A stretch of 64,000 bases of DNA from an uncultured bacterium (GCA_964387845.1 CAYLXA010000008.1:44270-108269), one strand, 5' to 3'. Counted from the stretch's first letter, positions 2,944 through 53,426 are shown. Numbers and translations: made by a program. The notes: generated by a model from the sequence alone, not told the origin.

Positions 2944-2962
2944 TTAGCCGAAAAATGAATCT

Positions 2963-3583: not shown

Positions 3584-3590
3584 TCGGAAC

Positions 3591-4364: not shown

Positions 4365-4373
4365 GGGTGAAAA

Positions 4374-12236: not shown

Positions 12237-12238
12237 CC

Positions 12239-23446: not shown

Positions 23447-26400
23447 GTGCGCAAAAAGCCATTTTTCATCAAAGCAATTGCCCTAGCGCTTTGCTTTACT
23501 TTTATCGCTACCGATACCATCGCTTATTCCGACGCAGCTCAGACATCTCCGCAACTGGCGGAGATGCTGAAGCAGTCCTCGAACTGGTTGAGTTTGAGGG
23601 CCGCTACCATTTCGGGACTTTTCCGCAACGCCGCACCTTCTGTTTCCGGTACGCGTTTACCTGCCGCAGCTCCCAAGTTCGCCCGTTACTTGTCAGAACT
23701 TCGAAATGAAGCCAATGAAAAACCGGTTACGGCTGACTACATATCCGCTCAAACAATTCAGAATCAAAAAACCAATGAAATTACGCCTCCGCCTCAATCT
23801 GAATTACGCCAAGAGAAGCCCAGATTTAAATCGCGGCACAGCTTTTTTAACCATGCCATACAGTTAAGCCGCAACTTATTCAAGCTTTCAGAGTGGAAAC
23901 ACCGGATTTTGAGATTGTCCAGCAGCTTCGGAAACCTTCCAGATGACATTCTGTTTCTAGTTACAACTCTTCCCATATTGATCGGAATATTGATAGTGGA
24001 TGCTCTTGATAATTTTCATGATAACCCCAAAACAAACGCAAGAATATGGTTCTGGGTTGTTACGAGTTCAGCGGTGTGGCTCTTCTCAGTGTTAACTGCC
24101 AATGTTGTTTTATTCAGATTTCAGAAACCTGCAAAAAGAAAATTGCCGGCAAAATCTGATCAGAAAGTTCAACGATCTGAATTGCGCGGCCATTCGGGCG
24201 TAGGGAGTTATGTCATTGGCGATTTGGAATTTAATAAAGGTGATCCAACCGGCTTTGAATTGATTAAACGGTTGATCGGAGAAGTAAGAGCAGGTCTTTT
24301 AACCGGCGAACTTCAAAAAGCCGGCTTGGATCAAGATTCTATTTCACATATATTCCGGCTTGCTTCTTCGCCTAGTAAAAGTGCGCGCGAGCCAATTGGT
24401 TTCAAATACAGTGAAGCGGCCGGTCAGTTTGAGCTGATTAAAAATGATTTGCGCACCTATCTTCATCAGCTTCAGAAAACACAAAATCATGATCACGAAA
24501 TCAATGTTTATGCGCTTGGGTTAGGCAATCTTCCGGTTGAAGCAGAGGAAGTCATCAAGTTGTTTCTGAACGTCATGGAAGAGGAGCTTGGCGAAGCAGC
24601 CAAAAATTGGTCTTTTAATTTTATCGGAATTGATTTTCAAGACGAACCCATCAAAGTCGCGCGAAAATACTTTGCAGAAGATATGGCTTCTCTAAAAGAA
24701 AAAGGATTCCGGAAAGTCACTTTACAAGCTGTGAAGGCAAACGCACTGTCATCTTCAGAGCTGACGCGGGTATTTGAAGAAACGGGTGGCTCTAAGAAAG
24801 CAGACTATTTATTTCATCGGCATGTGATGTATGTAAACCGTGCTTCAAGTTGGTTAAATCAGCTTCGAGGCCTCACTCCTATCACGATGTTACGGCCTGT
24901 GCTTGCTGACGCGTTGGAGTCGTACCTTCAATCACAGAATTTGATCGGCGCATTTACAAAAACAGGTACACGTTATGTTATTGAACCTCTCGCCAGCTCA
25001 GACCCAAGCATACGGGAAGTTGTCATTCCGGGATCCAGCGTTTTGCCGCAGGAAAATGGCGCAGCCGGCAGCGGGATTTATATTGTGAATGACCCCGCCG
25101 TTTTTACAGCAACCGGCTTCATTCAATATCTCCAGGATCAGCTTGGAGAAAATTTCTCCATCTCCGGCCCTCTTCGGGTCGATCGGACTGGAGGCCGGGG
25201 AGAGCTGCGCCGGGCTTCGAATTTTCATTTTGTAAACACAGTACGCAGAGTGTTGCGGCGGGAAATCGCCCAAATAGAAAAAGACAAGTGGCAAAACTGG
25301 GCAGTTGGTTTTGAGCCTGTGCAAGATGTTGCAAGCCACCTTGTCCGCGGTGCAAAGGGCGAGCTATGGATTCATTTGCACTTAACCTACCACGGACATG
25401 ATAAACGTGCTCGTTTCGCCGAAAATGGCGTCTATGACTTGGGATTGCTTTTCCGGATAACCGATCGAGAGAATCAATTAACTCTTGATGCCCCCATGAT
25501 TGAACCGCAAATAGGCCGGTCTGACTATTTTGCTTTTACACGCGCCGAAACGGTGCTTTCTTCCGAGCAGGCGGCCCGGCTTGTGAAGGAGGGAACGGAA
25601 TTTGTCAATTCGCACGCCGGTCCGATCCGCAGTGCAATGCGTCTTGCCAAGAAAAAACCGAGCTCAATTCATAATCTATTGGGCCGTGCAGTATCGCCCC
25701 GGCACGCACGAGGCCTTTACAACATGATGACATTAGGGCATGAGGAAAAGCGTGTGATTGACCGTACAAAAAGGCGCTCGGTTACTTATCGGTTTGTGGG
25801 CAGCCGGCGAAGCGAGCTGCGTCAAAAATCGGAATTAGATTCGGCCCGAGAGTTTGTGGCTCACGCTATCCAAACCGGCCAATTGAAATTAGATCTGTTT
25901 GATCGGGGAAGGGAGCCTGCAAAACAAATTCTTCAGGAAGTTTTAGCTGAAAATCAAAAGCGAAAAACGGATCATATTCAAGAAGTCGAAACCGCAAGGC
26001 ACAAAATAGCAACTTTCGAATCAAGGTTCAAAAAAATCCGTGATGAAATTGATTTTGACCCGTTTAAACCTCTGGCGCCGACGGAGCAGGAAAAAATCAT
26101 GGAATGGTGGGCTGATGACCTGTACATGATGGAATATGAAATCAGAAATTATTTAGCCGAAATTCAGTCGGGGCAGCATCCGTTTTCAGGAAACGAATTG
26201 GATCAAGTAGTGGATGCTTTAATAGCCGCTTACCGGTGGAGTATGGATGTTGTTGCTTTTTTTGAAAAACAAAAAGCAGAACTATTATTCTTTCGAAATC
26301 AAGAGACCACCGACAGCGAAGAGTCGGCCGATACCATGGCGGCACTTTCAGGCGCATTTTCAGTTTTAGCCGACATCAAATCTCCGCGCGGACAAATCCC

Positions 26401-29400
26401 GGAAAATGTTTTTTTTGCCATAGCTGCAACCAAGCGCCACAAAGCGAAAGAATTTTTACTTTCTGTTCTTCGTGAGATTGGTTTCGATAAAACAAAATCC
26501 GAAACCCAGAAAATCGTGAGAGGAAGGGCGCTTAATTATCTGTTTGCCCACTTTCACAGCTCGGAACTTGCAGCACTGGCCCGGCAGGCAATTGAAAATT
26601 TAGGCAGAGAGCAAAGATTTGATTACGATGGCTGGGCATTTGATAGCGCGTTCATGGAACTTTTGCCTTATCTCGGAGATGAGAATGTTAAAGCGTATAT
26701 TTTTAATTACTTAAAAGATGATTTTCAATTCGGAAAAGCTCTCGAAGCTGGGAACTGTTTGGAATACTTGCTGTTCGATTTAGAAACCGCGGAGGTCCCG
26801 GGTTGGTTTAAGGAGCGCTTGCAGATTTATTCGGAAAAAAATGCAGCGGCTATGGATGATTTTGGAATTACGGAAAATCAGGAAGCCTATTTAAATCGAA
26901 TTAAAAAATTAAATGATTTTCTAGCTCTAAAAGAAGCCGGAATCGGGCTGCCGTCTTATCAATTTTCAAAATACGTTTTTCGGCCTATTCATTCACAGGA
27001 TGAAATAGACACACTGCGCAAAATGAGCGGTTCATTTCCCGGACGACGCCCTGGTTGGAGCCCATGGGATATGACCGATTTTGTATTGGAAGATAGCAAG
27101 ACCCGTCAAATTGTCGGAGGCGGCATGATTTCGGAGCATGACTACGACACAGAAGCGCACCATATTCATCTTGTTGCTCTGAGTGACCAGCTGCAAGGCC
27201 GGGATAGGGCAGATGCGTTTGTGTTTATTCTCGCCGGCATGTTGCAATCCATGTCGCCAAAAATCAAAGGCCGGAAAGTTGTTTGGCGCACATGGGTAAA
27301 AGATATTCTGGAAAAGACACTCGCGCTTGATTTGGCGGGCGTTGATTTAGAACCTCTCATCAATCAAAACCCTGATGATGCACGCTCGGAATTGCTCAGT
27401 AAGCCTGAATCGCAGAATCCTATCCTCGAAATCAATCAAGATTGGCGAAACATTTTTGATGACAACGCAAAACCGCTGGTGGTGGATGTCGGGTTCGGAA
27501 ACGGAGAAACACTGCTTTACCGAGCACAGCACGAGCCGGACAAAAATTTCATCGGTATCGAACTTCCCGAAGAGCCGTATGCGGATATGCTGGCTGAAAG
27601 GATTCAAACAGTGGGAATCAAAAACCTAAAAGTCCTCAAAGTGGCTGATTTTGAGGCATTTCGCACTCAACTCAAATTCGGGAACCAAGCAATCGTTTCA
27701 GAGCTAACTTATTACGATCCGTTTCCGGATAGTCCTTATGTATTTAGAGAACATACCGCTGATTTACAGCAAATTTTAAAACCCGGCGCGCTCGTTAAAA
27801 TCATGGTTTTTGAACACGAATTTTGGCAAGAACTGTCCGGCATTTTTGAATCCAACGGATTTCAAACGCTAAATCCTGCCGACCATGTTTTTGAGGATAA
27901 TCATGATACGCAGGATTCAAATGAGGCATTTAGCACTCAACTGAAACTTATTTTCCGATGGCCCGGTCTATCATCAAATCGTTCCGAATTGCGCCAAGAC
28001 CTCAAAATTCAGACGATTCTAAACGATATTGCCCAAAGCAGATTGATTTCGGAGAATCAGCCGGAAACTCGGTCTTTTTTTAATAGAATTTCGGATCGGT
28101 TAAAACAAAAATCAGTTTCCCAAACTTTCTTTTTGACCGGATTGTTACTTTCATCTTATGTCTATATTTTATTCGAGCGCTGGCTTGCTGCCGAGCCGGT
28201 CGAATCGAATGCTCAAGAAATAGCTGCCGCCATTTTACTATTGGGCATTATTTCTACGATTTTTACCACGATCGTTAAGAGAATGAATAAGTCTAGTACA
28301 TCCTGGCGCTGGGATGTTATTAGCTTTTCGGAAAATCAAATCATAGAAGATGCATTGACTTTTCTGGACCCTCACAAACATCAATTAAATCCCAATGTGG
28401 ATATTATTGTTGAGAAAAGAAGCCACAGGTTTAAGCGTATTGCCATCGGATTTTTCAAAGAAAGTTTAAAAAATCTTGGCGCCGGTGCAATGTTTTTATT
28501 GATAGGAGGCTTTTTAGCTTGGAAAATTGGATACGGCCTTCTTGATTTGTACAAGCAAGACCTGCACGCTGCATTTAAAGTCCCTGTCTATGGCATATTC
28601 GGCGCGGGGCTGATTGTGTTTGGTTTTGTGGGCATGATGGGATTTACCGTGCTTTTTCTATCTCCGTTCATTGCTCTTATGCAGGCTTGGGATGGAGAGT
28701 TTTCAGATAAGGGAATCGAGGACCAAAGAATTTTTGTCCAGCACCAAGAATCCGAAGATGTTTTTTACGAGACGCTAGTTGAAGAATTAAATCACCGTTT
28801 CAAACTCCGCCGAGAGCCGCTTCCGGAGTTTCCAAAAACACTGGATGGTTTGCGGCTCGCCATGATACTCAAACGCTACGGCCTCCCCGGCAGTGAAATT
28901 GCGAATCGTTCCGCCTCCGGCCTCCTCCGGGTCTTGCGCCCTGAAGGGTCAGAGACCGCAGACCGTAACGCTCTCCGAGCCAACGGCTCGATGGAGCCGA
29001 GGGCACGGGGGGAACTTCGGCAGTCGGAACCTCGGAAGATGAGCAGGGCTGAGCTCGCCTCTTTATTCAGGGCGCAGCTACGCGAGGCGAATTTCATTGC
29101 ATCGATACCGGTGTTGATACAACACGTATGGAATGTAATCGCCAAATTAGCAAAGCCCCTCAACTTCCAGTTTCGCGAACTAGGCCTAACGCAAGAGCTC
29201 CTCCGTTTGCAGACAGGGTTTTGGATCACCCGATTTGGGCCTGAAGACCGGATGTGGTGGGGACTCCGCGACGGCATGAAGTTCGGAGATACCGTTAATT
29301 GGTGGGGGCCTAAACAAAAAAGACCGGAGCCCCTGGGTTTTCATACCGGGATTGATTTTGTGATGTATCAAAATTTTCAAAAGGCCTGGAAAACAATTCC

Positions 29401-38400: not shown

Positions 38401-38992
38401 ACAAAACAGGTTGGATGCCGTCATTCATGAAATCCGGAATAATTCATCAAGTGCCGTACGTTCAGAATTAAAAGTTCAGAGCGAGAAATTGGTTCAATTT
38501 TTAACCGGCGGACAAAATAGAGCCACGTCATTGTCGGGCACTGCCGAAGCTGCCAACGCGCGCTCGGCGTTTGTCTTTTTGCCCGGAACCACCAATGAGC
38601 TGGGCGCTGTTTTTAACCAGATTACAGAAGCTCTTGCCGCCAAAAGCGAATTGAGAGCCGAAATCATTGCTTACGTGGATGGCCCGTTGATGGCGCGCAC
38701 AATCCGTGAAATCATCCTCGGTGTTCAGGGCGCTGAGCGTGTCCATATCGTGGCGAGTAATGAAGAGGCCGTGGCTAAAGCTCAGTCTCTAAACGTTGCG
38801 CATGCACATTTGATCGGATGGGAGGGGGAGCTTGAAGCGCCGTTTGTCCAAAATTTGGAGGACAGCTACCTGAAGCTCGGTATTCGCGTGGTGAAGAAAA
38901 ATGTAAGTGATTTCATGAGTTTTCTCGGGCGTGAGGCCGCTCGTTTTATCCAAGGATGGAAATCAGCAGTTCTCTACGCCAAATCCGCATAA
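23447..38992 (+). CDS. Giant (5181 aa) secreted/membrane-anchored mosaic protein with about 18 [RK]SELR linker motifs, 3+ methyltransferase domains, an M23 peptidase domain, HhH and HTH modules, and FYN-G beta-repeats
   Basis: Uninterrupted 15,546-nt ORF. N-terminal signal peptide MRKKPFFIKAIALALCFTFIATDTIAYS. TM clusters at about 23.84-24.12, 28.09-28.69, 31.0-31.35 and 35.46-35.83 kb. Recognisable modules: TrmB-like MTase (VVDVGFGNGETLL...FIGIEL), M23 (GFHTGIDF...PHLHLSIGW), RpoA-alphaCTD-like HhH (ISRLNIRYRLQRRIRQAGIRTVGQLVDL), MTS-type MTase (LVVGSGSGFDTW...FDRIIWNMPEH), PIMT (GQTISQPS...VLEVGAGSGW...PFDKIVVSAG...GGLLIIPV), 3 x HTH, 6 x FY(N/D)xxGxLL repeats. Confidence 0.85.
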   Translation: MRKKPFFIKAIALALCFTFIATDTIAYSDAAQTSPQLAEMLKQSSNWLSLRAATISGLFRNAAPSVSGTRLPAAAPKFARYLSELRNEANEKPVTADYISAQTIQNQKTNEITPPPQSELRQEKPRFKSRHSFFNHAIQLSRNLFKLSEWKHRILRLSSSFGNLPDDILFLVTTLPILIGILIVDALDNFHDNPKTNARIWFWVVTSSAVWLFSVLTANVVLFRFQKPAKRKLPAKSDQKVQRSELRGHSGVGSYVIGDLEFNKGDPTGFELIKRLIGEVRAGLLTGELQKAGLDQDSISHIFRLASSPSKSAREPIGFKYSEAAGQFELIKNDLRTYLHQLQKTQNHDHEINVYALGLGNLPVEAEEVIKLFLNVMEEELGEAAKNWSFNFIGIDFQDEPIKVARKYFAEDMASLKEKGFRKVTLQAVKANALSSSELTRVFEETGGSKKADYLFHRHVMYVNRASSWLNQLRGLTPITMLRPVLADALESYLQSQNLIGAFTKTGTRYVIEPLASSDPSIREVVIPGSSVLPQENGAAGSGIYIVNDPAVFTATGFIQYLQDQLGENFSISGPLRVDRTGGRGELRRASNFHFVNTVRRVLRREIAQIEKDKWQNWAVGFEPVQDVASHLVRGAKGELWIHLHLTYHGHDKRARFAENGVYDLGLLFRITDRENQLTLDAPMIEPQIGRSDYFAFTRAETVLSSEQAARLVKEGTEFVNSHAGPIRSAMRLAKKKPSSIHNLLGRAVSPRHARGLYNMMTLGHEEKRVIDRTKRRSVTYRFVGSRRSELRQKSELDSAREFVAHAIQTGQLKLDLFDRGREPAKQILQEVLAENQKRKTDHIQEVETARHKIATFESRFKKIRDEIDFDPFKPLAPTEQEKIMEWWADDLYMMEYEIRNYLAEIQSGQHPFSGNELDQVVDALIAAYRWSMDVVAFFEKQKAELLFFRNQETTDSEESADTMAALSGAFSVLADIKSPRGQIPENVFFAIAATKRHKAKEFLLSVLREIGFDKTKSETQKIVRGRALNYLFAHFHSSELAALARQAIENLGREQRFDYDGWAFDSAFMELLPYLGDENVKAYIFNYLKDDFQFGKALEAGNCLEYLLFDLETAEVPGWFKERLQIYSEKNAAAMDDFGITENQEAYLNRIKKLNDFLALKEAGIGLPSYQFSKYVFRPIHSQDEIDTLRKMSGSFPGRRPGWSPWDMTDFVLEDSKTRQIVGGGMISEHDYDTEAHHIHLVALSDQLQGRDRADAFVFILAGMLQSMSPKIKGRKVVWRTWVKDILEKTLALDLAGVDLEPLINQNPDDARSELLSKPESQNPILEINQDWRNIFDDNAKPLVVDVGFGNGETLLYRAQHEPDKNFIGIELPEEPYADMLAERIQTVGIKNLKVLKVADFEAFRTQLKFGNQAIVSELTYYDPFPDSPYVFREHTADLQQILKPGALVKIMVFEHEFWQELSGIFESNGFQTLNPADHVFEDNHDTQDSNEAFSTQLKLIFRWPGLSSNRSELRQDLKIQTILNDIAQSRLISENQPETRSFFNRISDRLKQKSVSQTFFLTGLLLSSYVYILFERWLAAEPVESNAQEIAAAILLLGIISTIFTTIVKRMNKSSTSWRWDVISFSENQIIEDALTFLDPHKHQLNPNVDIIVEKRSHRFKRIAIGFFKESLKNLGAGAMFLLIGGFLAWKIGYGLLDLYKQDLHAAFKVPVYGIFGAGLIVFGFVGMMGFTVLFLSPFIALMQAWDGEFSDKGIEDQRIFVQHQESEDVFYETLVEELNHRFKLRREPLPEFPKTLDGLRLAMILKRYGLPGSEIANRSASGLLRVLRPEGSETADRNALRANGSMEPRARGELRQSEPRKMSRAELASLFRAQLREANFIASIPVLIQHVWNVIAKLAKPLNFQFRELGLTQELLRLQTGFWITRFGPEDRMWWGLRDGMKFGDTVNWWGPKQKRPEPLGFHTGIDFVMYQNFQKAWKTIPEGTEVQALYGGTVVSVFQDDMQSTLVVNQEITDTDGGNTLVTIYAHIEPETNVQPGVKIEAGDVLGRIRRSRNERSIVSPHLHLSIGWAKPEFFERLKSDGVDWPFVDALAKEGLLTYVDPLTFLDKNEADHFFMNAQHNKLKKILILNTQPGAQFFLTRQVIEKQFPGVTTLAVRSFEEAQKILNDPSSEIDAVVRVDESASISFPRKYLKRTAVLDYQEKNKREFLRQLHVVNVIGRLYHEPISRLNIRYRLQRRIRQAGIRTVGQLVDLANLPKKFRKFTTGLSKVPEGLERRLQGSRYKDEIIRAIVSVQPQAILTRSILHRRSLGFFQMAYRLTFGFEYHPETRNFAELILFLNGLSGSVFKELVKQFDVHIQTDLIDILQRVARIAPEAISVNVLEMFIDDEETPKRMRENFNTLADLIHMARNDTKRFKEIFGYQISWHVLLLLLEILYDAVPGEIMWQEWPDLVHTVLNPHNLPRTFGSGGLSGHINAYSAAIQAHWRRLMAEHKGYAKRKDRSELRQAGDRQIFQRAFQGIAFGGYGAGLIAATWQMLTVYPQMLRPSLFVILLTWNFYQIVKLILKQPFVSQEKINQEKYINRQLIITHLPQLGLIKAHMLAPWLEAFMQAPEVGALFLTVSGLLVSKLAFDSYLRNDGRASGRSELRTNDPEEPNAKNPRTSTYETIISNRPQMNPTESNTEQASLFMAPLENVTPDAVRWLDRVFNSRLPKGQYVFVGVVVDRKSKDIQAFQDGVYMIAKFLEVGGAFEEIGLNEIKNKKLRRRITAVGKGSSVRVIEFASVGGGDDYEIPLRRLQGVVEDYYSNEPIVWIPISPEGELSSTLGWKPKNRAFHLTLVHQAPEQEPEARSELRNDGGIILEAGQQIKAVEGYQMQLQENGSVAFYRERLSSPEPDPVEVVKPTMAGMPVYDEAGNIMGYVGITHDFEGQGEDRKLIARTAFYPEPEFDIEKTHVPSTWPAWELLKAVGLLIPKEDAHILKIEDISQTSDSKIHRITVRVPEEQSFPLRGIEILARELIENPSAEQQFDLVYNEKGHLLAVFPVFGNENRAAAEDGLFLDVSPYYFEVPKDIRGESKLLIDQFLREWRQNQQHIQAYQKKHFGSNRMNFWHFSYNNDENNDEDNKEEPLYQFYHLLHSHGHDLSYLGEVEVQSLEHIFYYVSKDPDRKMLLLPIFPTVFPPSGDPQHDTEYHKAILIDPRFDLNENQRTLVVGSGSGFDTWLVSLKTRKTVSVIDINPLAVANTKALAKIAGFKVLARTADNIVDESGKPTFPDARFDRIIWNMPEHVEGDGPSHGQLATQRTKWYLTDHWDGDVDGFSLTRFASGLCDILNPDSRVLIWNSNNEDSILNAFENRGMEVERAGLNYRYSLYFIQPSAAAGELLEPISNSADQRSEPQKHIAVLQRFKHNPTGFMGWLKNEIAEVLTIIDMPSGQFMKLPDAERRKKNQRIENAISMLYGVEDFISAKDAAKIIKNIDEARRMLDEIYQMSEWRKNDFSAIRGGKQDSKLPASTEQAWHARDIFNEFLPKNGLGEALQKYTGDKKVLDTAAEKWLPVFTRVPKHLFMPKYLRQDAYLHDAPYRIGYGQTISQPSLVAFILALLDLEPSDEVLEVGAGSGWLAALMSQQAAHVYATELIPQLAGRAERVIENMGIQNVSIVEADGSVGYPQAAPFDKIVVSAGSPNVPELLVNQLREGGLLIIPVLDPAASKKQKSYKLTLFVKEGGKLTEKLAIDRVNFVDLRGVHGWQPAPKRSELRRAAQPKDSNSEKSTPKPETESDRRIIRAVNYFLKEKRPFNQGDIAKKARVSLQTVTNRKHANPSIARFVDWALEKAPKAEPKSVQALIRAAKQLKKEGKSGVTNSVVADLAGYHPQTVTSISKLYPKVKQAVQGARQSPHAQISPTIQKVVDVIKAAAKKKQVFQNEGQIAQAAEIRPETLSRIKKRRSSYREPFLQLLQYAVSDPDRALEIIKKHFSIHSEQRVSVQASAQDENLRSELRADGAIQDPGMVVTALIGVAAFGILIFGFDSVRERAFKVGSAALKLIRRLFWLWTGVLWISTHLAYAAHRVRPDSQDKIYQATGFDPGDLNYSEFLYPWAIFTVFIYPVAAFGLMRYLNRLVMRRNVLPFETSPSRSIPAHPTTSELDINRKVGTAQPSDQYSKDPLMKGRAELRASGSNPKKKDTSKATDLEKRFKELLEEADRTLEANKQLEDGLDEIHKVLPELPKDIIDGRSELRQSDPIGTASALPGPLAKSELRNFLPNQNPINRLDAKQGSGIGARGNVLEGRSGSNSEFYNYRGEKVLVLPTSTAKGILGLGDFIVVMPRPKPGTQDHILFYNSSGSLLFEAVNVSDYSLVGENMAIKFANGNIQFYDKTGKKLLSSFDHFSNFHPSQIDLQGDLLVFKKSSNEVGFYNSTGSLILRKSKGTDFDSFYVKGSFIVLVKKDNHHVYSGLTGKLIAKTQASVGETAQFDGDFFAVVNWNEFTFYNLQGKKILEKRTGSGDDNFINWSGEGGLLTFDKTHSRTFYDENGKLLAAIQKRVFASRVVNKVLRLEDNADFYEWYDFSPNALSASSKGQKSLDQIFSHNPAMLSRIRDYVKRRYDNPLMSREEPNHDLSSDLDDASNLIQLEKMPTEWIDDLSSLVLTGYNPSDKGARSILKEAAIQLGLIQAPSSQTKEAVPITYNQKALMRILSSGVITEAIRNGQFSFPTTGKRSSLIFLSDDGTNVKRIDETDSAKANVQLEFYLSSDNRTVGVSISVRDDNKASGWRVQHEEPKQLKDLQTSIEPASSKPSLTIVSARKQRTLDELINKVSKFPGWSNPGPSTYSFAHQATQISAFYTGIVPNLQPRWAWHLKVISSGYNLSVVVEDHIQSPGKWITVVKFNNSGSNNSVASQEWGNHLIDIEQNGLKTNIYMTKAYVDSLVKNRIPLKGATIDGVEWEFIPINPKQILPAKSELRTQAEQVSIETLDAALSVEPKAQNRLDAVIHEIRNNSSSAVRSELKVQSEKLVQFLTGGQNRATSLSGTAEAANARSAFVFLPGTTNELGAVFNQITEALAAKSELRAEIIAYVDGPLMARTIREIILGVQGAERVHIVASNEEAVAKAQSLNVAHAHLIGWEGELEAPFVQNLEDSYLKLGIRVVKKNVSDFMSFLGREAARFIQGWKSAVLYAKSA

Positions 38993-39038: not shown

Positions 39039-40304
39039 ATGAGTCAATCAAGTAAGCTGTTCCAGCAGTCTAAAACACATTTCCCGGGAGGTGTGAATTC
39101 ACCGGTACGGGCGTTTCGTGCTGTCGGAGGATCGCCGCGTTTTATTGCGAAAGCCAAAGGGCAATTTATTTGGGACGCAGACGGCAAAAAATATCTCGAT
39201 TTCTGCCAGTCTTGGGGCCCGATGATTTTGGGCCACGCGCATCCGAAAGTAGCGAAAGCAATCTCCGATCAAGCCAAAAAAGGAACGAGTTACGGCGCGC
39301 CGACCGAAAATGAATCGAAACTTGCTTCCTTAATTAAAGAAGCATTTCCATCCATTCAGAAAATGCGGTTTACGTCATCCGGCACGGAAGCCGCGATGTC
39401 CGCAATCCGGGTTGCGCGCGGATTCACGAAACGGAAGAAAATCCTCAAATGCGACGGCTGCTATCATGGCCATAGCGATTCGTTGCTTGTGAAAGCCGGC
39501 TCGGGTGGTGCGACATTCGGTGTTCCGGATTCGGCCGGTGTGCCGGAAGACCTCGCGAAGCTCACGATTACGATTCCGTACAACGATTTTGACGCGCTTG
39601 AGCGTATATTTAAAAAAGAAGGAAAAAACATCGCTGTTTTTGCTCTGGAGCCCGTTCCGGCCAATATGGGCGTTGTATTGCCAAAACCCGGCTTCCTGGA
39701 GTTTGCGAGGGCCCTGACTAAGAAATACGGCACTTTGCTCATGTTTGACGAAGTCATTACGGGTTTTCGCATCGCTTTTGGCGGTGCGCAGGAATATTAC
39801 GGAATTAAAGCTGATCTCACATGCCTAGGAAAAATCGTAGGCGGCGGGCTTCCGATCGGTGTTTTCGGCGGCCGCGCAGACATTATGAGCAAAATTTCAC
39901 CGGAGGGGGCTGTTTATCAAGCCGGAACTTTGTCGGGAAATCCTCTGGCGACTGCGGCCGGCATTGCGACCTTGACGGAATTAAAGAAAAAGGATTTTTA
40001 CAAGCAGCTTAATATCAAGGCTCTTGAATTTTTCGGGATGCTGGATGATGTGTTCGAACGGGGAAGTTATCCGGTAACGCTCAACCGGATCGGCTCCATG
40101 TTCACAATTTTTTGTACACCAAACCCCGTATTTGATTACGAGTCCGCAAAATTTGCACATCCGGAGTGTTACGCCCAAATGTTTCAAAGTTTGCTTTCCA
40201 AAGGGGTTTATTTCGCGCCGTCACAGTTTGAAGCCAACTTTATTTCACAGGCAATGACACGCGAAAATCTTCAAAAAGTCGTTTCAGTTATTTCTCGTTT
40301 TTAA
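39039..40304 (+). CDS. hemL: Glutamate-1-semialdehyde 2,1-aminomutase
   Basis: FPGGVNSPVRAFRAVGG, GPMILGHAHPKV, FTSSGTEAAMSAIRVARGFT, PLP-lysine region GKIVGGGLPIGVFGGR. Confidence 0.9.
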   Translation: MSQSSKLFQQSKTHFPGGVNSPVRAFRAVGGSPRFIAKAKGQFIWDADGKKYLDFCQSWGPMILGHAHPKVAKAISDQAKKGTSYGAPTENESKLASLIKEAFPSIQKMRFTSSGTEAAMSAIRVARGFTKRKKILKCDGCYHGHSDSLLVKAGSGGATFGVPDSAGVPEDLAKLTITIPYNDFDALERIFKKEGKNIAVFALEPVPANMGVVLPKPGFLEFARALTKKYGTLLMFDEVITGFRIAFGGAQEYYGIKADLTCLGKIVGGGLPIGVFGGRADIMSKISPEGAVYQAGTLSGNPLATAAGIATLTELKKKDFYKQLNIKALEFFGMLDDVFERGSYPVTLNRIGSMFTIFCTPNPVFDYESAKFAHPECYAQMFQSLLSKGVYFAPSQFEANFISQAMTRENLQKVVSVISRF

Positions 40305-40491: not shown

Positions 40492-42486
40492 TTATTCGTA
40501 ACGAAGTGCTTCGATAGGATCGAGTTTGGCAGCTTTTTGTGCGGGCCAAATGCCGAAAATGATGCCGACGGCGGAGGAGAATCCGACGGAGAGCAGAATT
40601 GAATTGAGGGAAACACGGACGGCCCATCCAAAAGCATGCGCTAAACCGTAAGCGACGGCAGAACCGATCAAAATGCCGGCAGCGCCTCCGATCAAGCTGA
40701 CCACCATCGATTCAACCAAAAATTGCAAATAAATGTCCTTCCTCTTTGCGCCGATGGCCTTCCGGAGGCCGATCTCTTTTGTTCTTTCCGTAACGGATAC
40801 GAGCATGATGTTCATGATACCGATTCCGCCGACAAGAAGCGCAATTCCGGCGATAGAGCCCAGAAAAATCGTCATGGTTTGAGTGACTTTTGCGATGGAT
40901 TCCTGAATCTCCGTCATGTCGCGGATTGTGAAGCTGTCTTTACGGGTTTCGGGGAGCCGGTGGCTTCTGATGAGCATGGGAATAATCGCATCCTTTACGT
41001 CCTGAATTTTTTCTTTTGCTTCAACTTCAACTTCGATGGTGCGCAAATAATCGGTGCCGATGAGCCGTTTCATGGCGGTCATGATCGGAATGATGACCAC
41101 ATCGTCTTGATCGCGCCACTGGTTTCCGCCTTTTTCGGGAAGGACGCCGATGACGCGGAAGGCGATCCGGTTGATACGGATAATTTTGTTAATCGGATCT
41201 TCTTTATCAAAAAGTTTCTGGCGGACTGTTTTGCCGATCACAACTACTTTGGCTCTTGTCATATTTTCCCTGTCCGTAAAGAACCGTCCGAGAACAGGTT
41301 CTGCCGCGCGCATTGAAGCGTATTCGGGAGCAACGCCCTGGACTTCCGAATTCCAATTTTTGTTTTGATACACCAGCTGTACGCCGGCCTGGACCGTGGG
41401 GTTGACGCGTTTAACATTCGGAAGTTCACGAACGGATTTCAGGTCGTCCAACGTGAGCCGCGCCGCAGCGCCTTCTGCCATGGCAACGCCGCGCAAAATC
41501 GCGTTGTTGGGCCTCACGACGATTAAATTAGAGCCCAATCTTTCGAGGTCAGCCGTCATGGAAGCTTTGGTGCCTTCACCGAGCGCGAGCATCGCAATCA
41601 CGGATCCGACACCGATTAAAATTCCGAGCATTGAAAGCACCGAACGGACTTTATTGGCAAGAATGGCGGTGATGGCTTGTTGAACAAAGATGCTGATTTC
41701 TTTGAGGATTGAAGAAGAAGGCTTCCCCTCACCCTTACCCTCTCCCCTTAGGGGAGAGGGAAAAGAATTCGATCCCCCTCTCCCTCCGGGAGAGGGTGGG
41801 GTGAGGGAGGTTGAAGAGCCTGAGTCAGAAACGATCTGCCCGTCTTTCATTCGGATTTGGCGCTTTGCATATTCCGCGACTTCTTCTTCATGCGTCACCA
41901 GAATAATCGTGAGCCCCTTTTCATTCAGATTTTTAAGCAGTTTCATAATTTCAGTTTGCGTGTGTGAATCCAAATTTCCTGTCGGTTCATCCGCCATGAT
42001 GATTTTAGGATCGTTGATGAGTGCGCGAGCGATGGCAACGCGCTGCTGTTCGCCGCCTGAGAGTTGGTTGGGTTTGTGCTGTGCGCGTTTCTCGAGATTG
42101 ACTTCGCGTAAGCGTGTCAGAATTTTCTCTTCATTTTGGGAATCTGCATTCGGGCTATAAATCAGCGGCAGCGCCACATTTTTGGATGCGGTCGTGCGGG
42201 AAAGCAGGTTGAACATTTGAAAAATAAAGCCGATTTTTTGATTTCTCAAAACCGCAAGCGCATCATCCGAAAGCTCCGAAATTTGCTCGCCGTCCAAAAT
42301 AAATTCGCCGGAGTCCGGAACATCCAAAAGGCCCAGGACGTGCATCAAAGTTGATTTTCCGGAGCCCGACGGGCCCATGATGGCAATAAATTCGCCGGGT
42401 TGAATGTCGAGTGAAACACCGCGGAGTGCGTGGACTGAGGTTTCGCCGGAAGAGTAGGTTTTTTGAATATTTTTGAGCTTGATCAT
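40492..42486 (-). CDS. macB: MacB-type ABC transporter (fused ATPase + FtsX-like permease) with an in-frame palindromic-element insertion in the linker
   Basis: Walker A GPSGSGKST, Q-loop, signature LSGGEQQRVAIARAL, Walker B IIMADEPTGNLD. C-terminal 4-TM FtsX domain. The linker PSPGGRGGSNSFPSPLRGEGKGEG is encoded by the repeat at 41725-41808. Confidence 0.9.
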   Translation of the reverse strand: MIKLKNIQKTYSSGETSVHALRGVSLDIQPGEFIAIMGPSGSGKSTLMHVLGLLDVPDSGEFILDGEQISELSDDALAVLRNQKIGFIFQMFNLLSRTTASKNVALPLIYSPNADSQNEEKILTRLREVNLEKRAQHKPNQLSGGEQQRVAIARALINDPKIIMADEPTGNLDSHTQTEIMKLLKNLNEKGLTIILVTHEEEVAEYAKRQIRMKDGQIVSDSGSSTSLTPPSPGGRGGSNSFPSPLRGEGKGEGKPSSSILKEISIFVQQAITAILANKVRSVLSMLGILIGVGSVIAMLALGEGTKASMTADLERLGSNLIVVRPNNAILRGVAMAEGAAARLTLDDLKSVRELPNVKRVNPTVQAGVQLVYQNKNWNSEVQGVAPEYASMRAAEPVLGRFFTDRENMTRAKVVVIGKTVRQKLFDKEDPINKIIRINRIAFRVIGVLPEKGGNQWRDQDDVVIIPIMTAMKRLIGTDYLRTIEVEVEAKEKIQDVKDAIIPMLIRSHRLPETRKDSFTIRDMTEIQESIAKVTQTMTIFLGSIAGIALLVGGIGIMNIMLVSVTERTKEIGLRKAIGAKRKDIYLQFLVESMVVSLIGGAAGILIGSAVAYGLAHAFGWAVRVSLNSILLSVGFSSAVGIIFGIWPAQKAAKLDPIEALRYE
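41725..41808. repeat. Double-unit REP-like palindromic element inside macB
   Basis: CCCCTCACCC..CCCTCTCCCC-TTAG-GGGAGAGGG...CCCCCTCTCCC-TCCG-GGAGAGGG-TGGGGTGAGGG. Two inner palindromes sit within outer CCTCACCC/GGGTGAGG arms. It is related to the unit at 16970-17011. Confidence 0.7.
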
Positions 42487-42492
42487 GAACGA

Positions 42493-48731: not shown

Positions 48732-51700
48732 ATGAAAGTTATGCAAGGCCAAAAATATACCGCTCACCTTAAATTTGTTTCCTTATTCTTAATTATCACA
48801 CTTCTTTTAAACTCAGTTGCTTGGGCAGATCCGCCGAACGCTCATTTCTCGAAACTACCGCCCCATGTTTCGGTTTCTCATGTTAGTGAACCGATTCAAC
48901 TCCGCGATTTAAATGTCCTCGTTGATTACTTGACCGCCGACTTAAAGAACGAAGTTAAAATTGATATATCCAAAGAAACAGGAATCATTCGATCTATTTT
49001 ACGACATGATTCGCATTCTAGCCCTTTTGATTTTGATGTTGTTTTAATTCAGGATGCGCATGTCGATAACGAAGCGCAAACCAATATTCGACAAATTCTT
49101 CATTCTTTGTCAAAACAGATCGACCAACCGTTACTTATTGCGTTGGAGGGTACGAGCGGAAATTTAGAACCGAATATATTAAATTTCTTTCCGGACTATC
49201 CAAAAATCAATTCAATAATTGTGGAGGACTTGGAAAAGAGGGGAGAGCTGACAGGCGCTGAACGCTTCGCGTTTGAAAATCAACGGAATAAAACGCTTCT
49301 GGAATTTTGGGGGGCCGAAAACATTGATCAATACAAACAAAACCTTTCCGAATTTCGAGACGCTCTTCGGTTTTTTATAAATCATACCTCAGAACTCGAG
49401 CAAGCTGAGAGCCGGCTTGCCGGATTTCGCAAGCAAATTTTGAATCCTGAATTATGGTTCTTCCTAGAAAAGAGGGATGCTTTTTTAAAGGAAGAAGTTG
49501 ATTTAGCTGCTTATCTTACTTTTCTTCAGAGTGAGGCGATTCAGCATATAAAGCTTAATTTAGCCGATATTAAGCACCAATTTGATTTTCCAAATCTGGT
49601 TCGCTTTTCAAAACTTAAATACGAGGAAAATAAATTAAATCCTGAAAAGGCTTTGGAAGAATGCAGCAAACTTCTCTCTCTCGTTCAGAAGGAAATACCG
49701 AAAGGAAAAATTCAAAGTTATCTAACAGAACATCTCTGGCATCTTTCAAGAGATGTTTCTTTGCAACTGCCACAAAGTTCTCATCAAAATTTTTTTACTT
49801 CTGACCGACCTGTTATTACAGAAAAATCGCCGAACGTACGAGAGTTGTTTGAAATACTTCACGCTTCTTCGTTTATCTACAAATTTTCATTAGTACCGTT
49901 TCGAAACCTCATCCGTCTCGGACGTTTTTTGGCATTTCAATCGGAAATTGATGCCGCATCATTTTTTCAGGAGGTCCGTAAATTAGAAAGTTTGATCATT
50001 CGACGATTGGCCAAAACGCGCGAAGAGAAAAGACTTTTAGCTGCTGTGACTCGATGGAATTTGGTAAAAAAACTTTATGCACTTGAACTCAGTCGTTCGG
50101 AATTTTTGGATTATCAAAAATCGAAGCCACGGATATTAAAAACAATCTTGCGCTTTTTCCCCGCGCTTCCGGCGCCTGCACTTTCAGAAAAATTCTACGA
50201 TGGAGCATTAAAGCGCGACCATGTTCTTGTCCAAAACGCGCTTAATCATGCGGCCGGACGGCCCGTCATCATGGTAGCGGGCGGGTTTCATGCTGACGGA
50301 ATCGAATCTTATCTTCAAGACAACAATTTATCGTACGCAACCATTTCTCCGTCTATCAAAAACCCGAGCAAAGACCGCGAATCCTATTTTAAAACCTTTC
50401 AAGACGAAAACATCTCCTTTATTGTGGATATGCTGCGCACGAGCAATCCCGGCTTTTTTCGATCTGTCCGCGGCGAAAGACAATTCAATCTATTCGCTTT
50501 GGCAATTAGAAATCAGGAGGCCAATTTAGTTCGCATTTATTCTTTGACCCCCGAACAAGCGCGCTCGGAAATCAGGCAGGCGCTGGATCGGTGGCGTTTT
50601 CAATCCAGATCGGAATTGCGGCAAGACAGAAGTACCATTGTTACACCTGATAAAATCGAATCAAATTTTTCCAACAGTTCAGCAAGTCGCGCTCGAGAAA
50701 CGATCATTCCTCAAAGAATTCATCCCGGCACAATTGAAAAAATGCAAATTCCGTGGAGTTACAAATTAAGTCCAAAGTATTTTTGGAATTATCACAAAGC
50801 TTTAAGCCTGTCGGGCCTGGTTGTTTTTGGCCTGCTTTTATTTACAGCCGTAACCGGAAGAATTTTAGAACCGTTTACTGTTTTTTACTCCACGGTTTTT
50901 GCAGGCCTTTTAATGGCTCAAGCGGCCCGGTTTATCAAGAACCTCCTGATTCCTCCGGCGCATTATGTCATGCGAGATGACGGTGTCGCATTATTAGATA
51001 CTCATAACATAGAAATATTAAATCAAATCGTCTATCAATCCGAGATTCCATCCGCGATTTACATTGCCGTTGAAGATCAATTTGAAGGCAAAGATGAGAA
51101 AAGGCCGAATTATGAGGCCGTAAAAGCCTATGTTGAATTTCGCCAGGGATCATCACAGGGGTTTCGAAAAGTGAAAATCATTCCGCTCAGTAGATTGGGG
51201 CGGTTGTATTACACAAACCTTTACAATCAAAATCAAACCGGTGTGAAAAACATCATTTCAAGAAGTTTTCTCTTTGTGTGGAAATGGAAATTGTGGATAT
51301 GGATGCCTTTACTGCTTCCGGTTTGGTTGGCCGCAAATTTTCTCACGTTTGGTTATCTCAATCACGATTCTTTAATTCATTTTTACGGCGTAAAACCATT
51401 GCAAGGATGGGTAAGCTTGACGGATGTATCCGAATGGCTTCTGCATCTCAAATGGAGTTTTCTGCATCGAATCGAAATTCTCTTGTTCCTGGCGAATGAT
51501 TGGTTTAACAACACAAACAGCCTGTCCCCATGGTTTCAAACTATCGTATCGAATATTTTAACCAATCTAAGCGCCAAGTTATTTTCGTTATCAGAAACGC
51601 CGGGGTTATTCAGCTTGTACGCGGCAAAAGAAAAGGCAACAGACTACATTGCCTGGACTACGGTGATGGAGTCACTGACGTTTATCAGTTTTTTAGGTTT

Positions 51701-53426
51701 GGTAACGTTGGCGATGCTTTGGCTCCATTGGCAGCGGAGCCGCGAGAAAATTACTTATACGTTAACTGGCAAATCGCTTCCTGCGAAAGGAAAAATAAAA
51801 GGAATTTTTAATATAGGACTGATATCAATTCTGTTTTTAGCGGTCCCGGTTTTAATAGCCCCTCTCACCAATGGATTTATTTTGAGCCCGGTTGCGCAAA
51901 AGGCAATTCAGAATGACTTTAGCGAAGACAGGTCTTCGCTGGGTTTTATGTTTAAATATGCGGTTGAGCGGCAAGAGAATATTCGAAAAGATGATGAGGG
52001 ATTGAGAAGAGTGTTTGTGAAACTTCTCGAAAAGTTTGGGAAGGACGAAGATTTCACCAAAAACGGAGCATTTGACAAATATTTTGGGCGGCTCGGTCTG
52101 CAGGAATTTGAGTTTTTGATTAATCAATATCCGGAAGCGCGAACAGGGCTTTTGCAGTTATTAATCAAAGATCTGAACTTAGATCAAATTTTATTAACAC
52201 CCGGTATGGCGGCTCAAAGATTTCCTGGAAGCATTCAAGTTAAAGACAAGATCGACAAAATAAAGAATGTTAAATTGCCGGCAGATTTGAAAAAATTAAA
52301 ATTAGTTTTTGAAAACATGATTCAAGAATGGGAATCGGGAGGCAGCGAGCTTTTCAATGATCTTTTGAAGATCCAGGTTTTTGCGTTTGAAGATCAATAT
52401 TCTCCACTTTATATTGTTCCCTTAGGAGAAGAAGATCAGCTGGAAAAGTTTTTGAAGAATCTTGGAGAATTTGAAAAACCTCAGCAAGGGACAGAGGCTT
52501 TAGTTCCGGCATTGATTAAATTGGCCAAGAAGATGAGTTATTTGCCAAAAATAAGCCTGCAAGTGCCCAAGGCTAAAGATTTCAACCGGTCAGAGTTGCG
52601 CAAACCAACTTCGCGTTCTCAAATTTTATCGCGAATGCCGGATCATAACAATAAACATATTCACCATGCACTAAGCGCACGATTTTCATTTCAAGCTTCC
52701 GTGCTTTTTTTAGGAATTTTACCGGCCGCGTTCTCTGGAATTTCACCACCCGCCGGAAGACCGAATTTTGGTCTGCAGTCTTTACAGCATGAAGATTTTC
52801 AAGCAGTGATCCGATGGCTGCGTGAAAAAACGGATTCGCGGCTCAAAAAACAAGCAATTGAGTATTATACCGGTTTTTTTCAAGCGGAGCCCTCAACCGT
52901 TCCACAAACCATTATTCTTACGAGCGATTTGTTAACCCCCGAAGTGGTTGATGGAATTAACCAAGTAAGCTTAAATCCAAACGCAAAAATCATCGTTTAT
53001 GATGTAGGTGATTTAACAGCGCGATCCCTTCTTCCGCAACTTATCCGTGCGTCAGTTCGAAAAATATCAAAAAATGGCGCGGGATTTGATATCAATCAAT
53101 TCTTAAAAGAGGAAGTGCGCTCCGATAGATTGCCGCATACCGCTGTCTGGACAACGGAAACACATTTCGCAGATATTGAAAAAAATAAAGGTTTTCAATT
53201 TGTGGCGAAAAATCAATTGATGCGCGACGACAAATTGCGCGGGGCAGCGCTTTTATTACAATTCTTGCTCGTTCAGTTAGTTGCCAAACTCGGCATATTT
53301 CCTCAAAATCGAGACGAACTTTGGAAAAGAACATCCGACAATCGAATTGAATTTAATTTAACCAATCGAATTTTACAAATCCAAATGATTCATTCGGAAA
53401 TAAAAACGCTGCTGAGTTTTGCTTGA
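48732..53426 (+). CDS. Large (1564 aa) secreted/membrane hypothetical protein carrying two RSELR motifs, in a low-GC segment
   Basis: Uninterrupted 4.7 kb ORF. N-terminal signal/TM region (FLIITLLLNSVAWA), internal TM cluster at about 50.78-51.85 kb, mostly predicted helical. RSELR at 50607-50621 and 52587-52601. GC is clearly lower than the flanking housekeeping genes, with a very AT-rich upstream region. Confidence 0.75.
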   Translation: MKVMQGQKYTAHLKFVSLFLIITLLLNSVAWADPPNAHFSKLPPHVSVSHVSEPIQLRDLNVLVDYLTADLKNEVKIDISKETGIIRSILRHDSHSSPFDFDVVLIQDAHVDNEAQTNIRQILHSLSKQIDQPLLIALEGTSGNLEPNILNFFPDYPKINSIIVEDLEKRGELTGAERFAFENQRNKTLLEFWGAENIDQYKQNLSEFRDALRFFINHTSELEQAESRLAGFRKQILNPELWFFLEKRDAFLKEEVDLAAYLTFLQSEAIQHIKLNLADIKHQFDFPNLVRFSKLKYEENKLNPEKALEECSKLLSLVQKEIPKGKIQSYLTEHLWHLSRDVSLQLPQSSHQNFFTSDRPVITEKSPNVRELFEILHASSFIYKFSLVPFRNLIRLGRFLAFQSEIDAASFFQEVRKLESLIIRRLAKTREEKRLLAAVTRWNLVKKLYALELSRSEFLDYQKSKPRILKTILRFFPALPAPALSEKFYDGALKRDHVLVQNALNHAAGRPVIMVAGGFHADGIESYLQDNNLSYATISPSIKNPSKDRESYFKTFQDENISFIVDMLRTSNPGFFRSVRGERQFNLFALAIRNQEANLVRIYSLTPEQARSEIRQALDRWRFQSRSELRQDRSTIVTPDKIESNFSNSSASRARETIIPQRIHPGTIEKMQIPWSYKLSPKYFWNYHKALSLSGLVVFGLLLFTAVTGRILEPFTVFYSTVFAGLLMAQAARFIKNLLIPPAHYVMRDDGVALLDTHNIEILNQIVYQSEIPSAIYIAVEDQFEGKDEKRPNYEAVKAYVEFRQGSSQGFRKVKIIPLSRLGRLYYTNLYNQNQTGVKNIISRSFLFVWKWKLWIWMPLLLPVWLAANFLTFGYLNHDSLIHFYGVKPLQGWVSLTDVSEWLLHLKWSFLHRIEILLFLANDWFNNTNSLSPWFQTIVSNILTNLSAKLFSLSETPGLFSLYAAKEKATDYIAWTTVMESLTFISFLGLVTLAMLWLHWQRSREKITYTLTGKSLPAKGKIKGIFNIGLISILFLAVPVLIAPLTNGFILSPVAQKAIQNDFSEDRSSLGFMFKYAVERQENIRKDDEGLRRVFVKLLEKFGKDEDFTKNGAFDKYFGRLGLQEFEFLINQYPEARTGLLQLLIKDLNLDQILLTPGMAAQRFPGSIQVKDKIDKIKNVKLPADLKKLKLVFENMIQEWESGGSELFNDLLKIQVFAFEDQYSPLYIVPLGEEDQLEKFLKNLGEFEKPQQGTEALVPALIKLAKKMSYLPKISLQVPKAKDFNRSELRKPTSRSQILSRMPDHNNKHIHHALSARFSFQASVLFLGILPAAFSGISPPAGRPNFGLQSLQHEDFQAVIRWLREKTDSRLKKQAIEYYTGFFQAEPSTVPQTIILTSDLLTPEVVDGINQVSLNPNAKIIVYDVGDLTARSLLPQLIRASVRKISKNGAGFDINQFLKEEVRSDRLPHTAVWTTETHFADIEKNKGFQFVAKNQLMRDDKLRGAALLLQFLLVQLVAKLGIFPQNRDELWKRTSDNRIEFNLTNRILQIQMIHSEIKTLLSFA

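Follow-up and report, generated by a model that had tools for sequence, protein, structure and literature searches.

A giant modular reading frame punctuated by a recurrent pentapeptide in a probable Omnitrophota bacterium: a candidate cassette-type polyprotein

Why would a bacterium encode a string of unrelated membrane and soluble modules as one chain, and what is the short peptide that recurs between them? The question is raised by an open reading frame (ORF) in a stretch of 64,000 nucleotides (nt) from an uncultured bacterium (GCA_964387845.1 CAYLXA010000008.1:44270-108269), here called the window, to which all nucleotide positions refer unless another locus is named. The ORF listing and translation give a single uninterrupted frame on the plus strand, 23447..38992, with a GTG start and 5181 amino acids (aa), exactly as a first-pass annotation of the sequence had reported. 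The GTG at 23447 is the only start that retains the signal peptide and hydrophobic N-terminus, and the relatives likewise begin with GTG/Val. The same annotation held that no other gene of the window exceeds 1.6 kb at comparable density; a 1564-aa ORF at 48732..53426 and gltB (1537-1541 aa) are, however, also long. The giant protein and its relatives have an architecture in common, namely a leader, repeated units of a junction and a module, a final junction and a conserved C-terminal domain.

A pentapeptide recurring along the chain

The junction is a pentapeptide of the form [RK]-[SAGT]-E-L-R, with 15 occurrences in the 5181-aa protein. The looser xELR is found 17 times (14 SELR, two GELR and one AELR), and the degenerate SELL at aa 1314 and SELK at aa 5006 raise the number of junctions to 19, close to the "about 18" pentapeptide linkers first counted. 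SELR is expected 0.16 times from composition as against the 14 observed, and the maximum in 2000 shuffles was three. The motif [RK][SATG]ELR is wholly absent from ordinary proteins, represented here by 40,945 residues of six-frame ORFs (100-1400 aa) in the window and the fetched loci, and from GltB; its 39 copies are divided among five long ORFs, namely the giant, the 1564-aa ORF, the relatives P0002 and P0003, and a 3189-aa ORF, which come from three genomes and fall into two unrelated families. In a logo of 52 instances from six proteins, with E, L and R fixed by the search pattern, conservation is confined to positions -1 to +3: position -1 is R in 73%, with K or H making up most of the rest, and position 0 holds mostly S (62%) or A (21%), and otherwise G, T or P, with small polar residues after the motif. 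The flanks are mildly enriched in polar, disorder-type residues.

The conserved entity is the peptide and not the underlying DNA, because synonymous codons vary (all six Leu codons, both Glu codons, five Arg and five Ser codons among the 39 motifs) and no dispersed or tandem DNA repeats were found in the ORF; the same observations rule out a DNA or RNA element or a recombination footprint. Internal translation starts after the motifs were also considered and rejected, there being no consistent Met or start codon downstream. The median size of the modules between motifs is about 200 aa. A spacer of just 17 aa, enclosed by motifs on both sides, is seen in three proteins (QSDPIGTASALPGPLAK, QSGLIGATLASSRPAMM and ASPIGLPSVQSLSRLNA), the sites being window 36155-36232 (aa 4237-4262), P0003 aa 2001-2026 and aa 34-59 of a frame-3 ORF at locus L004. 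These spacers are equal in length and start with S-x-(P/L)-I-G, while being too short for similarity statistics; they could represent a conserved mini-module or a released peptide.

The motif-bearing ORFs are further distinguished by depletion of cysteine, which the first-pass annotation had overlooked along with the second motif-bearing ORF and the small family, with swappable cargo, to which motif, leader and C-terminal domain belong. The counts in the five are 3/5181, 1/1564, 0/1432, 0/2483 and 2/5133, as against an average of 0.91% in the other window proteins (binomial p ~4e-17), and the envelope proteins of the window are similarly poor in this residue. The 1564-aa ORF carries RSELR at nt 50607-50621 (aa 626-630) and 52587-52601 (aa 1286-1290), and its N-terminal ~460 aa are related (23% over 493 aa) to the Cys-free, RxELR-rich 3189-aa ORF, which lies 2.5 kb downstream of P0002 in Ca. 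Omnitrophica CG11 (L002, 16849 onward). These two ORFs form a second, unrelated family with the same junction motif. A version of the giant's C-terminal domain in the 1564-aa ORF was sought and rejected (hhalign probability 0.3).

Fixed ends and exchanged cargo

An exhaustive phmmer search of 1.84 billion representatives with aa 4000-5181 as the query recovered only four family members: the protein itself (P0001, identical to the translation and present at NCBI on a contig of 108,269 bp), P0003 (5133 aa), P0002 (1432 aa) and P0004 (225 aa), the last of which is in fact the terminal part of a longer ORF, cut short by the edge of its 1.7-kb contig, with a further SELR upstream. All four have the C-terminal unit of ~150-200 aa. 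It ends in AK[SA]A-COOH, which is invariant in four domains that are 25-32% identical to the window sequence. AlphaFold2 (AF2), run on the four-sequence alignment, returned a five-stranded alpha/beta sandwich with a pLDDT of 72.9 overall and above 85 in the core. The leader is the other fixed element, with 49% identity to the window in P0003 and 32% in P0002 by alignment, and with FFI.AIA..TF, LPAA and YL invariant. Between these ends, the interiors of P0002 and P0003 are unrelated to the window protein and to each other, and contain nine and 15 xELR copies, respectively.

The gene for P0003 maps to a 136-kb JGI contig, where it is immediately followed by a hemL with 87.7% amino acid identity (81% in nucleotides) to that of the window; the respective ispH products are 87.9% identical. 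At this syntenic locus BLAST aligns the leaders at 46% over 84 aa and the C-terminal units at 29% over 264 aa, and the internal cargo has in common just one module of ~100 aa, which is motif-bounded on both sides in P0003. It corresponds to a small beta module at aa 2853-2953 of the window protein (32% over 106 aa) and begins at a motif in both. No DNA similarity of the window gene to the last 10 kb of the P0003 gene is detectable. The first motif-bounded module of P0003 (aa 83-290) is instead a complete Bac_transf domain (1.4e-28, profile positions 8-177 of 179), and its cargo also includes an MTS methyltransferase and a weak DHH match; a weak NUDIX match was found in an ORF of L002. Close relatives at the same locus thus keep the leader, the tail and the junction while the cargo differs almost completely. 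These syntenic relatives, alike in flanks, leader and tail but with other cargo, show that the modules move as units.

The named relatives are all Candidatus Omnitrophica. At 90% identity, P0002 clusters with an NCBI protein labelled "Candidatus Omnitrophica bacterium", the family member P0006/PIW65784.1 and locus L005 (PCVY01000001.1) carry the same label, and a GTDB scan places the P0002 gene in Ca. Omnitrophica bacterium CG11_big_fil_rev_8_21_14_0_20_45_26. Given these labels, the family belongs to the Omnitrophota, and the host of the window is probably an Omnitrophota-type bacterium. The cluster mates of P0002 are near-identical, too similar for measuring selection on the motif. Other searches added little: a scan of genome contigs with aa 1855-3758 gave no matches, and one of IMG/VR with a profile of the C-terminal domain found no viral relatives. 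The same profile retrieved only P0004 from a protein index that evidently does not retrieve such long proteins, as residues 1-1320 had no matches in it, their own protein included; of the 43 candidates that a profile of 41 junction windows raised in the same index, which misses these long proteins, none scored.

The 5181-aa ORF is a genuine, selectively maintained gene; a chimeric assembly, or a pseudogene (decayed or fused) with no single translated chain, is in our view very improbable. What could be said for such an artefact is that the Logan assembly of SRR15237813, which covers the window from 26812 on, has a contig end at that point inside the gene, so that the 5' 3.4 kb are not independently bridged or reproduced. 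Against this, 12.2 kb of the ORF (26812-38992) are carried by the Logan contig, of which the 21.3 kb compared, starting at 29039, are 100% identical with zero mismatches; cysteine depletion and motif density are even on either side of the break; both family-specific ends, the leader and the C-terminal domain, are present and in the correct order; JGI and Logan, two independent datasets, gave the same sequence for the 5133-aa relative P0003; and chance cannot give 5181 sense codons without a stop. Logan contigs break elsewhere too, for example near 5433.

Cleaved precursor or single chain

The architecture could be that of a cassette-type polyprotein which is cut at the motif by a trans-acting protease, a reading for which we hold the case to be evenly balanced. 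It is favored because the motif is enriched and conserved as a peptide, is confined to long ORFs and absent from ordinary ones, and sits at the borders of units (the TrmB core, the PCMT end, Bac_transf and the transmembrane (TM) clusters); because cargo is swapped at the syntenic locus, and the homology of the window protein and P0003 begins at motifs; and because the motif flanks are mildly polar and disorder-type, the motif ORFs are depleted in cysteine, and the relatives are Omnitrophica, for whose long proteins cleavage is suspected in the literature. The polyprotein-like or MARTX-like logic proposed in the first-pass annotation remains the best reading of the layout. The junction would then be the recognition site of a site-specific endopeptidase acting in trans. 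Its scissile bond could be that between R and S, as the basic residue at -1 and the small one at 0 resemble P1 and P1', or alternatively that between L and R, by analogy with R-x-x-L sites such as those used by S1P/SKI-1-type subtilases. The precursor would be inserted or exported via the Sec-type leader and TM modules, and would then be cut into ~17 separate membrane and soluble proteins. The near-zero cysteine, the turnover of cargo and the presence of a cell-wall hydrolase suggest a role in the envelope or in cell-cell interaction, for example predation or episymbiosis, as has been proposed for the giant proteins of the Omnitrophota. One may further speculate that the invariant AK[SA]A is a C-terminal recognition tail: PDZ-containing tail-specific proteases, like some secretion and degradation systems, recognize nonpolar C-termini, and the conserved domain with its tail could serve as a sorting or recognition element.

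Several observations weigh against cleavage. The sole peptidase in the chain is an M23 domain of the peptidoglycan type, and no candidate processing protease was found; none of the invariant residues of the C-terminal domain is a Ser, His, Cys or Asp, and its fold matches were generic only. One motif, KSELR at aa 5066-5070 (38642-38656), lies in a loop of the folded C-terminal domain in the AF2 model, where it would be awkward as an obligatory cleavage site; it arises from a 4-aa insertion that the three relatives do not have. Some junction-free stretches are multi-domain, as in module K, with three domains in 903 aa. The modules dependent on S-adenosylmethionine (SAM) or uridine diphosphate (UDP)-sugars need a cytoplasm and M23 a periplasm, and hydropathy cannot assign the sides; the cytoplasm may be either the cell's own or that of a prey cell, and the site of M23 action either the periplasm or the prey cell wall. 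Finally, the family is tiny, with four clusters among the representatives searched, and the taxonomy of the window is derived from relatives.

The absence of an identified protease, the motif copy within the folded C-terminal domain and the presence of several domains in some motif-free stretches are also what one would expect of an uncleaved scaffold, in which one membrane-tethered chain holds multiple enzymes and the pentapeptide is an inter-module short linear motif, perhaps a structural linker cap or a site where a partner or chaperone docks; a 2026 preprint on the Omnitrophota indeed treats such proteins as single membrane-anchored chains (10.64898/2026.06.07.730766). This alternative is possible, if doubtful, as linkers normally need no conserved sequence, units of 21-64 aa are hard to explain as scaffold domains, and a strict pentapeptide at nearly every border of unrelated, protein-sized units, discrete TM modules among them, is the signature of a processed polyprotein. 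The motif could also be an export or translocation signal that re-engages the translocon, or that hands periplasmic modules to a MacB-type pump, with cleavage being optional. The Sec-type leader and TM modules, a cysteine content near zero, like that of the window's envelope proteins, and the MacB/MFP/OEP block (MFP, membrane fusion protein; OEP, outer-membrane efflux protein) downstream of hemL at both syntenic loci would fit such a role. Yet the motif is unlike any known export signal, the next TM helix lies anywhere between 12 and 50 aa away from it, the adjacency of the pump could be plain synteny of close relatives, and no such pump is found near the second motif family or P0002 in the fetched loci; we therefore regard this explanation as improbable. 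Far less credible still is membership of a characterized toxin or adhesin family (MARTX/RTX, a Rhs-type polymorphic toxin or a giant adhesin) or a viral origin. The layout does recall MARTX in its conserved ends, variable internal cassettes and Leu-containing inter-module motif, and an ABC/MFP/OEP export system is adjacent. There are, though, no matches to RTX, to the cysteine protease domain (CPD, Peptidase_C80), to Rhs/YD or to adhesin repeats, PADLOC gives only a generic PCMT-fold mad2 match, the C-terminal-domain profile has no IMG/VR relatives, and the adjacent exporter appears to be of the MacB and not the HlyB type.

The resemblance to systems known to be processed is nevertheless instructive for the polyprotein reading. 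In the MARTX toxins of Vibrio, conserved ends bracket strain-variable, unrelated effectors that are exchanged by recombination, and these effectors are released by cleavage after Leu in the inter-domain linkers. The window protein differs in being without RTX repeats (neither a match nor tandem repeats) and without an inositol-hexakisphosphate-activated CPD (no match in Pfam or NCBIfam), as was rightly noted at the outset; it has only three Cys, TM modules and housekeeping-type enzymes are part of its cargo, and its sequence is unrelated to theirs. As to dedicated HlyB-type secretion genes, an ABC/MFP/OEP system of the MacB/FtsX type is adjacent. Viral polyproteins, such as those of picornaviruses and flaviviruses, specify membrane and soluble proteins in one ORF with a short conserved junction peptide, and the sites of flavivirus NS3 have a basic P1 and a small P1'. 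The window gene is in contrast chromosomal, lies in a heme-biosynthesis neighborhood, has no processing-type protease in the chain and is without IMG/VR relatives. Both likenesses are functional analogies only. A third parallel is offered by RgpA, Kgp and HagA of Porphyromonas gingivalis, envelope or secreted precursors whose cleavage at Arg or Lys between domains yields several functional pieces. The gingipain precursor includes the protease, and has related adhesin and protease modules and a C-terminal domain of the type IX secretion system (T9SS); to our knowledge, these proteins have neither an extended junction motif nor TM modules.

Long and giant ORFs of the Omnitrophota have been described as poorly conserved, TM-rich enzyme mosaics, possibly acting in predation or attachment, and their cleavage is suspected, the cleavage points being called unknown (Seymour et al. 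2023, PMC10066038; 10.1101/2023.11.21.568195; 10.64898/2026.06.07.730766). As the relatives are Candidatus Omnitrophica, and long multi-enzyme proteins with a signal peptide plus TM helices are already on record there (same sources), the initial impression that no described bacterial family fits has to be given up. The window protein resembles Archaeovorin and the multi-enzyme clusters in its (inferred) phylum, in the unrelated enzyme domains within one ORF, in the signal peptide and in the numerous TM helices predicted by hydropathy, and the Omnitrophota giants in general in the few annotatable domains, poor conservation and rapid turnover; its assignment to an Omnitrophota genome is indirect, via the labelled relatives. 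It differs from Archaeovorin in size (15.5 kb and 5181 aa as against a gene of >90 kb and >30,000 aa) and in domain set, with only methyltransferases and M23 from a list of glycosyltransferases, methyltransferases, glycosyl hydrolases, peptidases and NUDIX. No SecA DEAD-like, C39 or S8 domain near the N-terminus was matched in Pfam or NCBIfam at E<=0.1; S8 and C39 domains occur in other Omnitrophota giants (West-Roberts et al. 2023, 10.1101/2023.11.21.568195). The dockerin and TSP3 domains of Omnitrophota giants are also absent. With four families, none dominating, and a signal-type leader plus TM helices, the architecture is that of the class 1 "multi-enzyme cluster", whose catalogue starts at >=10,000 aa, above the 5181 aa found here (10.64898/2026.06.07.730766). 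Since the size, the domains and the 10-kaa (thousand amino acids) threshold all fail, we do not file it as an Archaeovorin or a member of this catalogue.

Neither the junction motif nor the cysteine depletion is mentioned in this literature on long Omnitrophota proteins (10.1101/2023.11.21.568195; PMC10066038; 10.64898/2026.06.07.730766), in which we also found no description of the conserved leader, the AK[SA]A C-terminal domain or the syntenic cargo swap; a search for literature on bacterial or Omnitrophota polyproteins returned nothing relevant. What is apparently undescribed is the junction code and cassette architecture of these proteins, and not a new kind of protein. In its boldest form, which we put forward tentatively, [RK]-[SAGT]-E-L-R would be the processing site of an unrecognized Omnitrophota polyprotein system with a cysteine-free chain, a dedicated protease, swappable cassettes and a fixed leader and C-terminal domain. 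If so, a single translated chain would deliver an operon-sized set of membrane and soluble proteins, and confirmed cleavage would make this a rare cellular use of a virus-like polyprotein strategy for many unrelated proteins. The Omnitrophota carry the longest known bacterial genes, and a 5.2-kaa protein is small enough to analyze; were the same or a related junction code to punctuate the giants of 10-150 kaa, it would supply the missing cleavage map. The peptide is also a practical handle, as it can be sought in proteomes, mutated or taken as a cut map for structure prediction of giant proteins, and near-zero cysteine is a compositional signature that sets this protein class apart from ordinary proteins.

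The modules and their chromosomal setting

The features of the giant gene and of the second motif-bearing ORF are collected in Table 1. The cargo seems, by profile matches, to consist of complete, protein-sized units: SAM methyltransferases, a true PCMT, an intact M23 endopeptidase, a beta-propeller, and TM and unassigned modules. The general picture first drawn, in which a signal-type leader precedes a mosaic of unrelated modules split by TM clusters and a conserved pentapeptide, is borne out.

Table 1. Positions of the modules, junctions and ends of the giant gene, and of the second motif-bearing ORF, in the window (HTH, helix-turn-helix)
Feature	Residues (aa)	Nucleotides	Strand	Description
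Whole ORF	1-5181	23447..38992	+	modular polyprotein-like gene; ~17 unrelated modules between leader and tail
Leader	1-117	23447..23797	+	Sec-type signal/anchor helix aa 7-25 (...AYSDA), then LPAAAPK..YL
Module B	118-243	23798..24175	+	TM hairpin; uncharged stretches 168-184, 200-223
Module C	244-584	24176..25198	+	possible SAM methyltransferase fold, weak: Methyltransf_31 E=5e-4 to 5e-3, sub-cutoff
Module D	585-788	25199..25810	+	no detectable family; starts at RGELR (nt 25196-25210)
Module E	789-1313	25811..27385	+	mostly helical by eye, no detectable family; ends at degenerate RSELL
Module F	1314-1512	27386..27982	+	TrmB-like SAM methyltransferase, 199 aa
Module G	1513-1854	27983..29008	+	TM cluster of 4-5 helices and soluble tail
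Module H	1855-2506	29009..30964	+	hydrophobic helix aa 1881-1899, M23 aa 1984-2071, then uncharacterized region
Module I	2507-2649	30965..31393	+	TM cluster of 2-3 helices
Module J	2650-2855	31394..32011	+	no detectable family; only Imm26 at E=0.08
Module K	2856-3758	32012..34720	+	small beta module, MTS/HemK2-like methyltransferase (aa ~3200-3367), PCMT (aa 3556-3752)
Module L	3759-3999	34721..35443	+	three HTH-like units, sub-threshold only (E 0.004-0.17)
Module M	4000-4173	35444..35965	+	TM cluster 4011-4031, 4052-4071, 4097-4117
Modules N and O	4174-4237 (N, 64 aa), 4238-4258 (O)	35966..36220	+	O holds a 17-aa spacer between two junctions
Module P	4259-4960	36221..38326	+	FY[ND]xxG repeats, then helical and beta-rich regions of undetected fold
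C-terminal unit	4961-5181	38327..38989	+	helical pre-region, then five-stranded alpha/beta domain of ~145-150 aa
AK[SA]A tail		38978-38989	+	also the C-termini of P0002, P0003 and P0004
Junction motifs (19)		within 23690..38656	+	15 nt each, form [RK/x]-[SAG]-E-L-[RKL]
Junction starts 1-10		23690, 23795, 24173, 25196, 25808, 27383 (SELL), 27980, 29006, 30962, 31391	+	
Junction starts 11-19		32009, 34718, 35441, 35963, 36155, 36218, 38324, 38459 (SELK), 38642	+	
Second motif-bearing ORF	1564 aa	48732..53426	+	1 Cys, signal-type N-terminus, no Pfam/NCBIfam match

The first junction motifs (aa 82-86 and 117-121) close the leader region, and module B is bounded by those at nt 23795-23809 and 24173-24187. 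Pfam supports all four of the enzyme calls made at first sight, TrmB-like, M23, MTS-type and PCMT. Module F, whose length is that of a whole TrmB catalytic core, matches Methyltransf_4 (PF02390) at aa 1342-1454 (4.9e-11, 42.8 bits vs a cutoff of 24) and PDB 1yzh (1.9e-6), and has VVDVGFGNG as motif I; NCBIfam NF001080 aligns at aa 1327-1486 with profile positions 32-193 of 224, and the scores are below the TrmB equivalog cutoffs (49.4 vs 112.65 for TIGR00091 and 41.8 vs 132 for NF001080). The M23 domain of module H (PF01551, 3.5e-9, 37.2 vs 28.7 bits) has intact HTGID and HLH zinc-ligand motifs, and the catalytic motifs of the SAM-binding modules are likewise preserved. The MTS domain of module K is borderline in Pfam (aa ~3207-3295, 3.1e-5, 24.1 bits vs a cutoff of 23), and the same unit matches HemK2/MTQ2 (TIGR00537, 8e-15). 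The PCMT is the firmest of the set: PF01135 covers aa ~3556-3746 (3.2e-48, 164.7 vs 20.3 bits), NCBIfam pimt TIGR00080 scores 166 vs a cutoff of 159.05, with NF001453 just under its own (183.5 vs 188), and PDB 1jg1 matches at 1.6e-33. Its natural C-terminus lies 6-12 residues before the next junction. PADLOC assigns mad2 (PDLC04134, methylation-associated defence) to this module (34112-34684, 2e-33), which most likely reflects the PCMT fold rather than a role in defense.

Two other early calls fared less well. The alphaCTD-like stretch of RpoA type in module H (aa 2226-2257) is sub-threshold for PF03118 (E=0.012, 15.7 vs 23.8 bits), and the three HTH assignments in module L find only the sub-threshold matches of Table 1. 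The six repeats originally written as FY(N/D)xxGxLL are present in module P, FY[ND]xxG being found at aa 4299-4531 and the beta-propeller-like repeat region spanning about aa 4299-4545; module P is weakly similar to the repeat protein P0005 (E=1.5e-4), and single-sequence AF2 of aa 4280-4960 gave no usable model (pLDDT 33.8). The four TM clusters, too, were recovered by hydropathy, at aa 168-223, 1556-1748, 2521-2631 and 4011-4117, which together with the N-terminal signal-type helix make five clusters with ~12-14 hydrophobic segments. Motifs set off every TM cluster as a separate module, and the helices may number 2, 4-5, 2-3 and 3, so that the sides of the membrane could alternate along the chain. 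P0003 has, at aa ~4560 (L008 ~8900), a TM module followed by HEVIH, an HExxH motif, where the window counterpart reads EELNH; the P0003 module could be membrane metalloprotease-like. Homology of module G to it was considered and is not demonstrable (BLASTP E=0.11).

The genes of the window run in the order hemA-hemC-cobA/hemD-hemB, two histidine kinases, acs, the giant ORF and hemL, followed by MacB/MFP/OEP on the minus strand, ispH, a porin-like gene, the 1564-aa ORF, gltB and gltD. The giant had been placed between hemB and hemL: hemL does follow directly, whereas hemB ends at 16948, with the two histidine kinases and the acetyl-CoA synthetase intervening. The heme genes (12083-16948) are thus separated from hemL (39039-40304), with the giant as an island in a conserved housekeeping backbone. 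Rfam and tRNA scans of the window were empty. The MacB/MFP/OEP block is inverted between the relatives, at 40492-44758 (-) in the window and 13428-17711 (+) in L008, and its products are 51, 48 and 34% identical as compared to 88% for hemL and ispH. Beside the giant gene, the block is thus a further segment that evolves fast or has been replaced.

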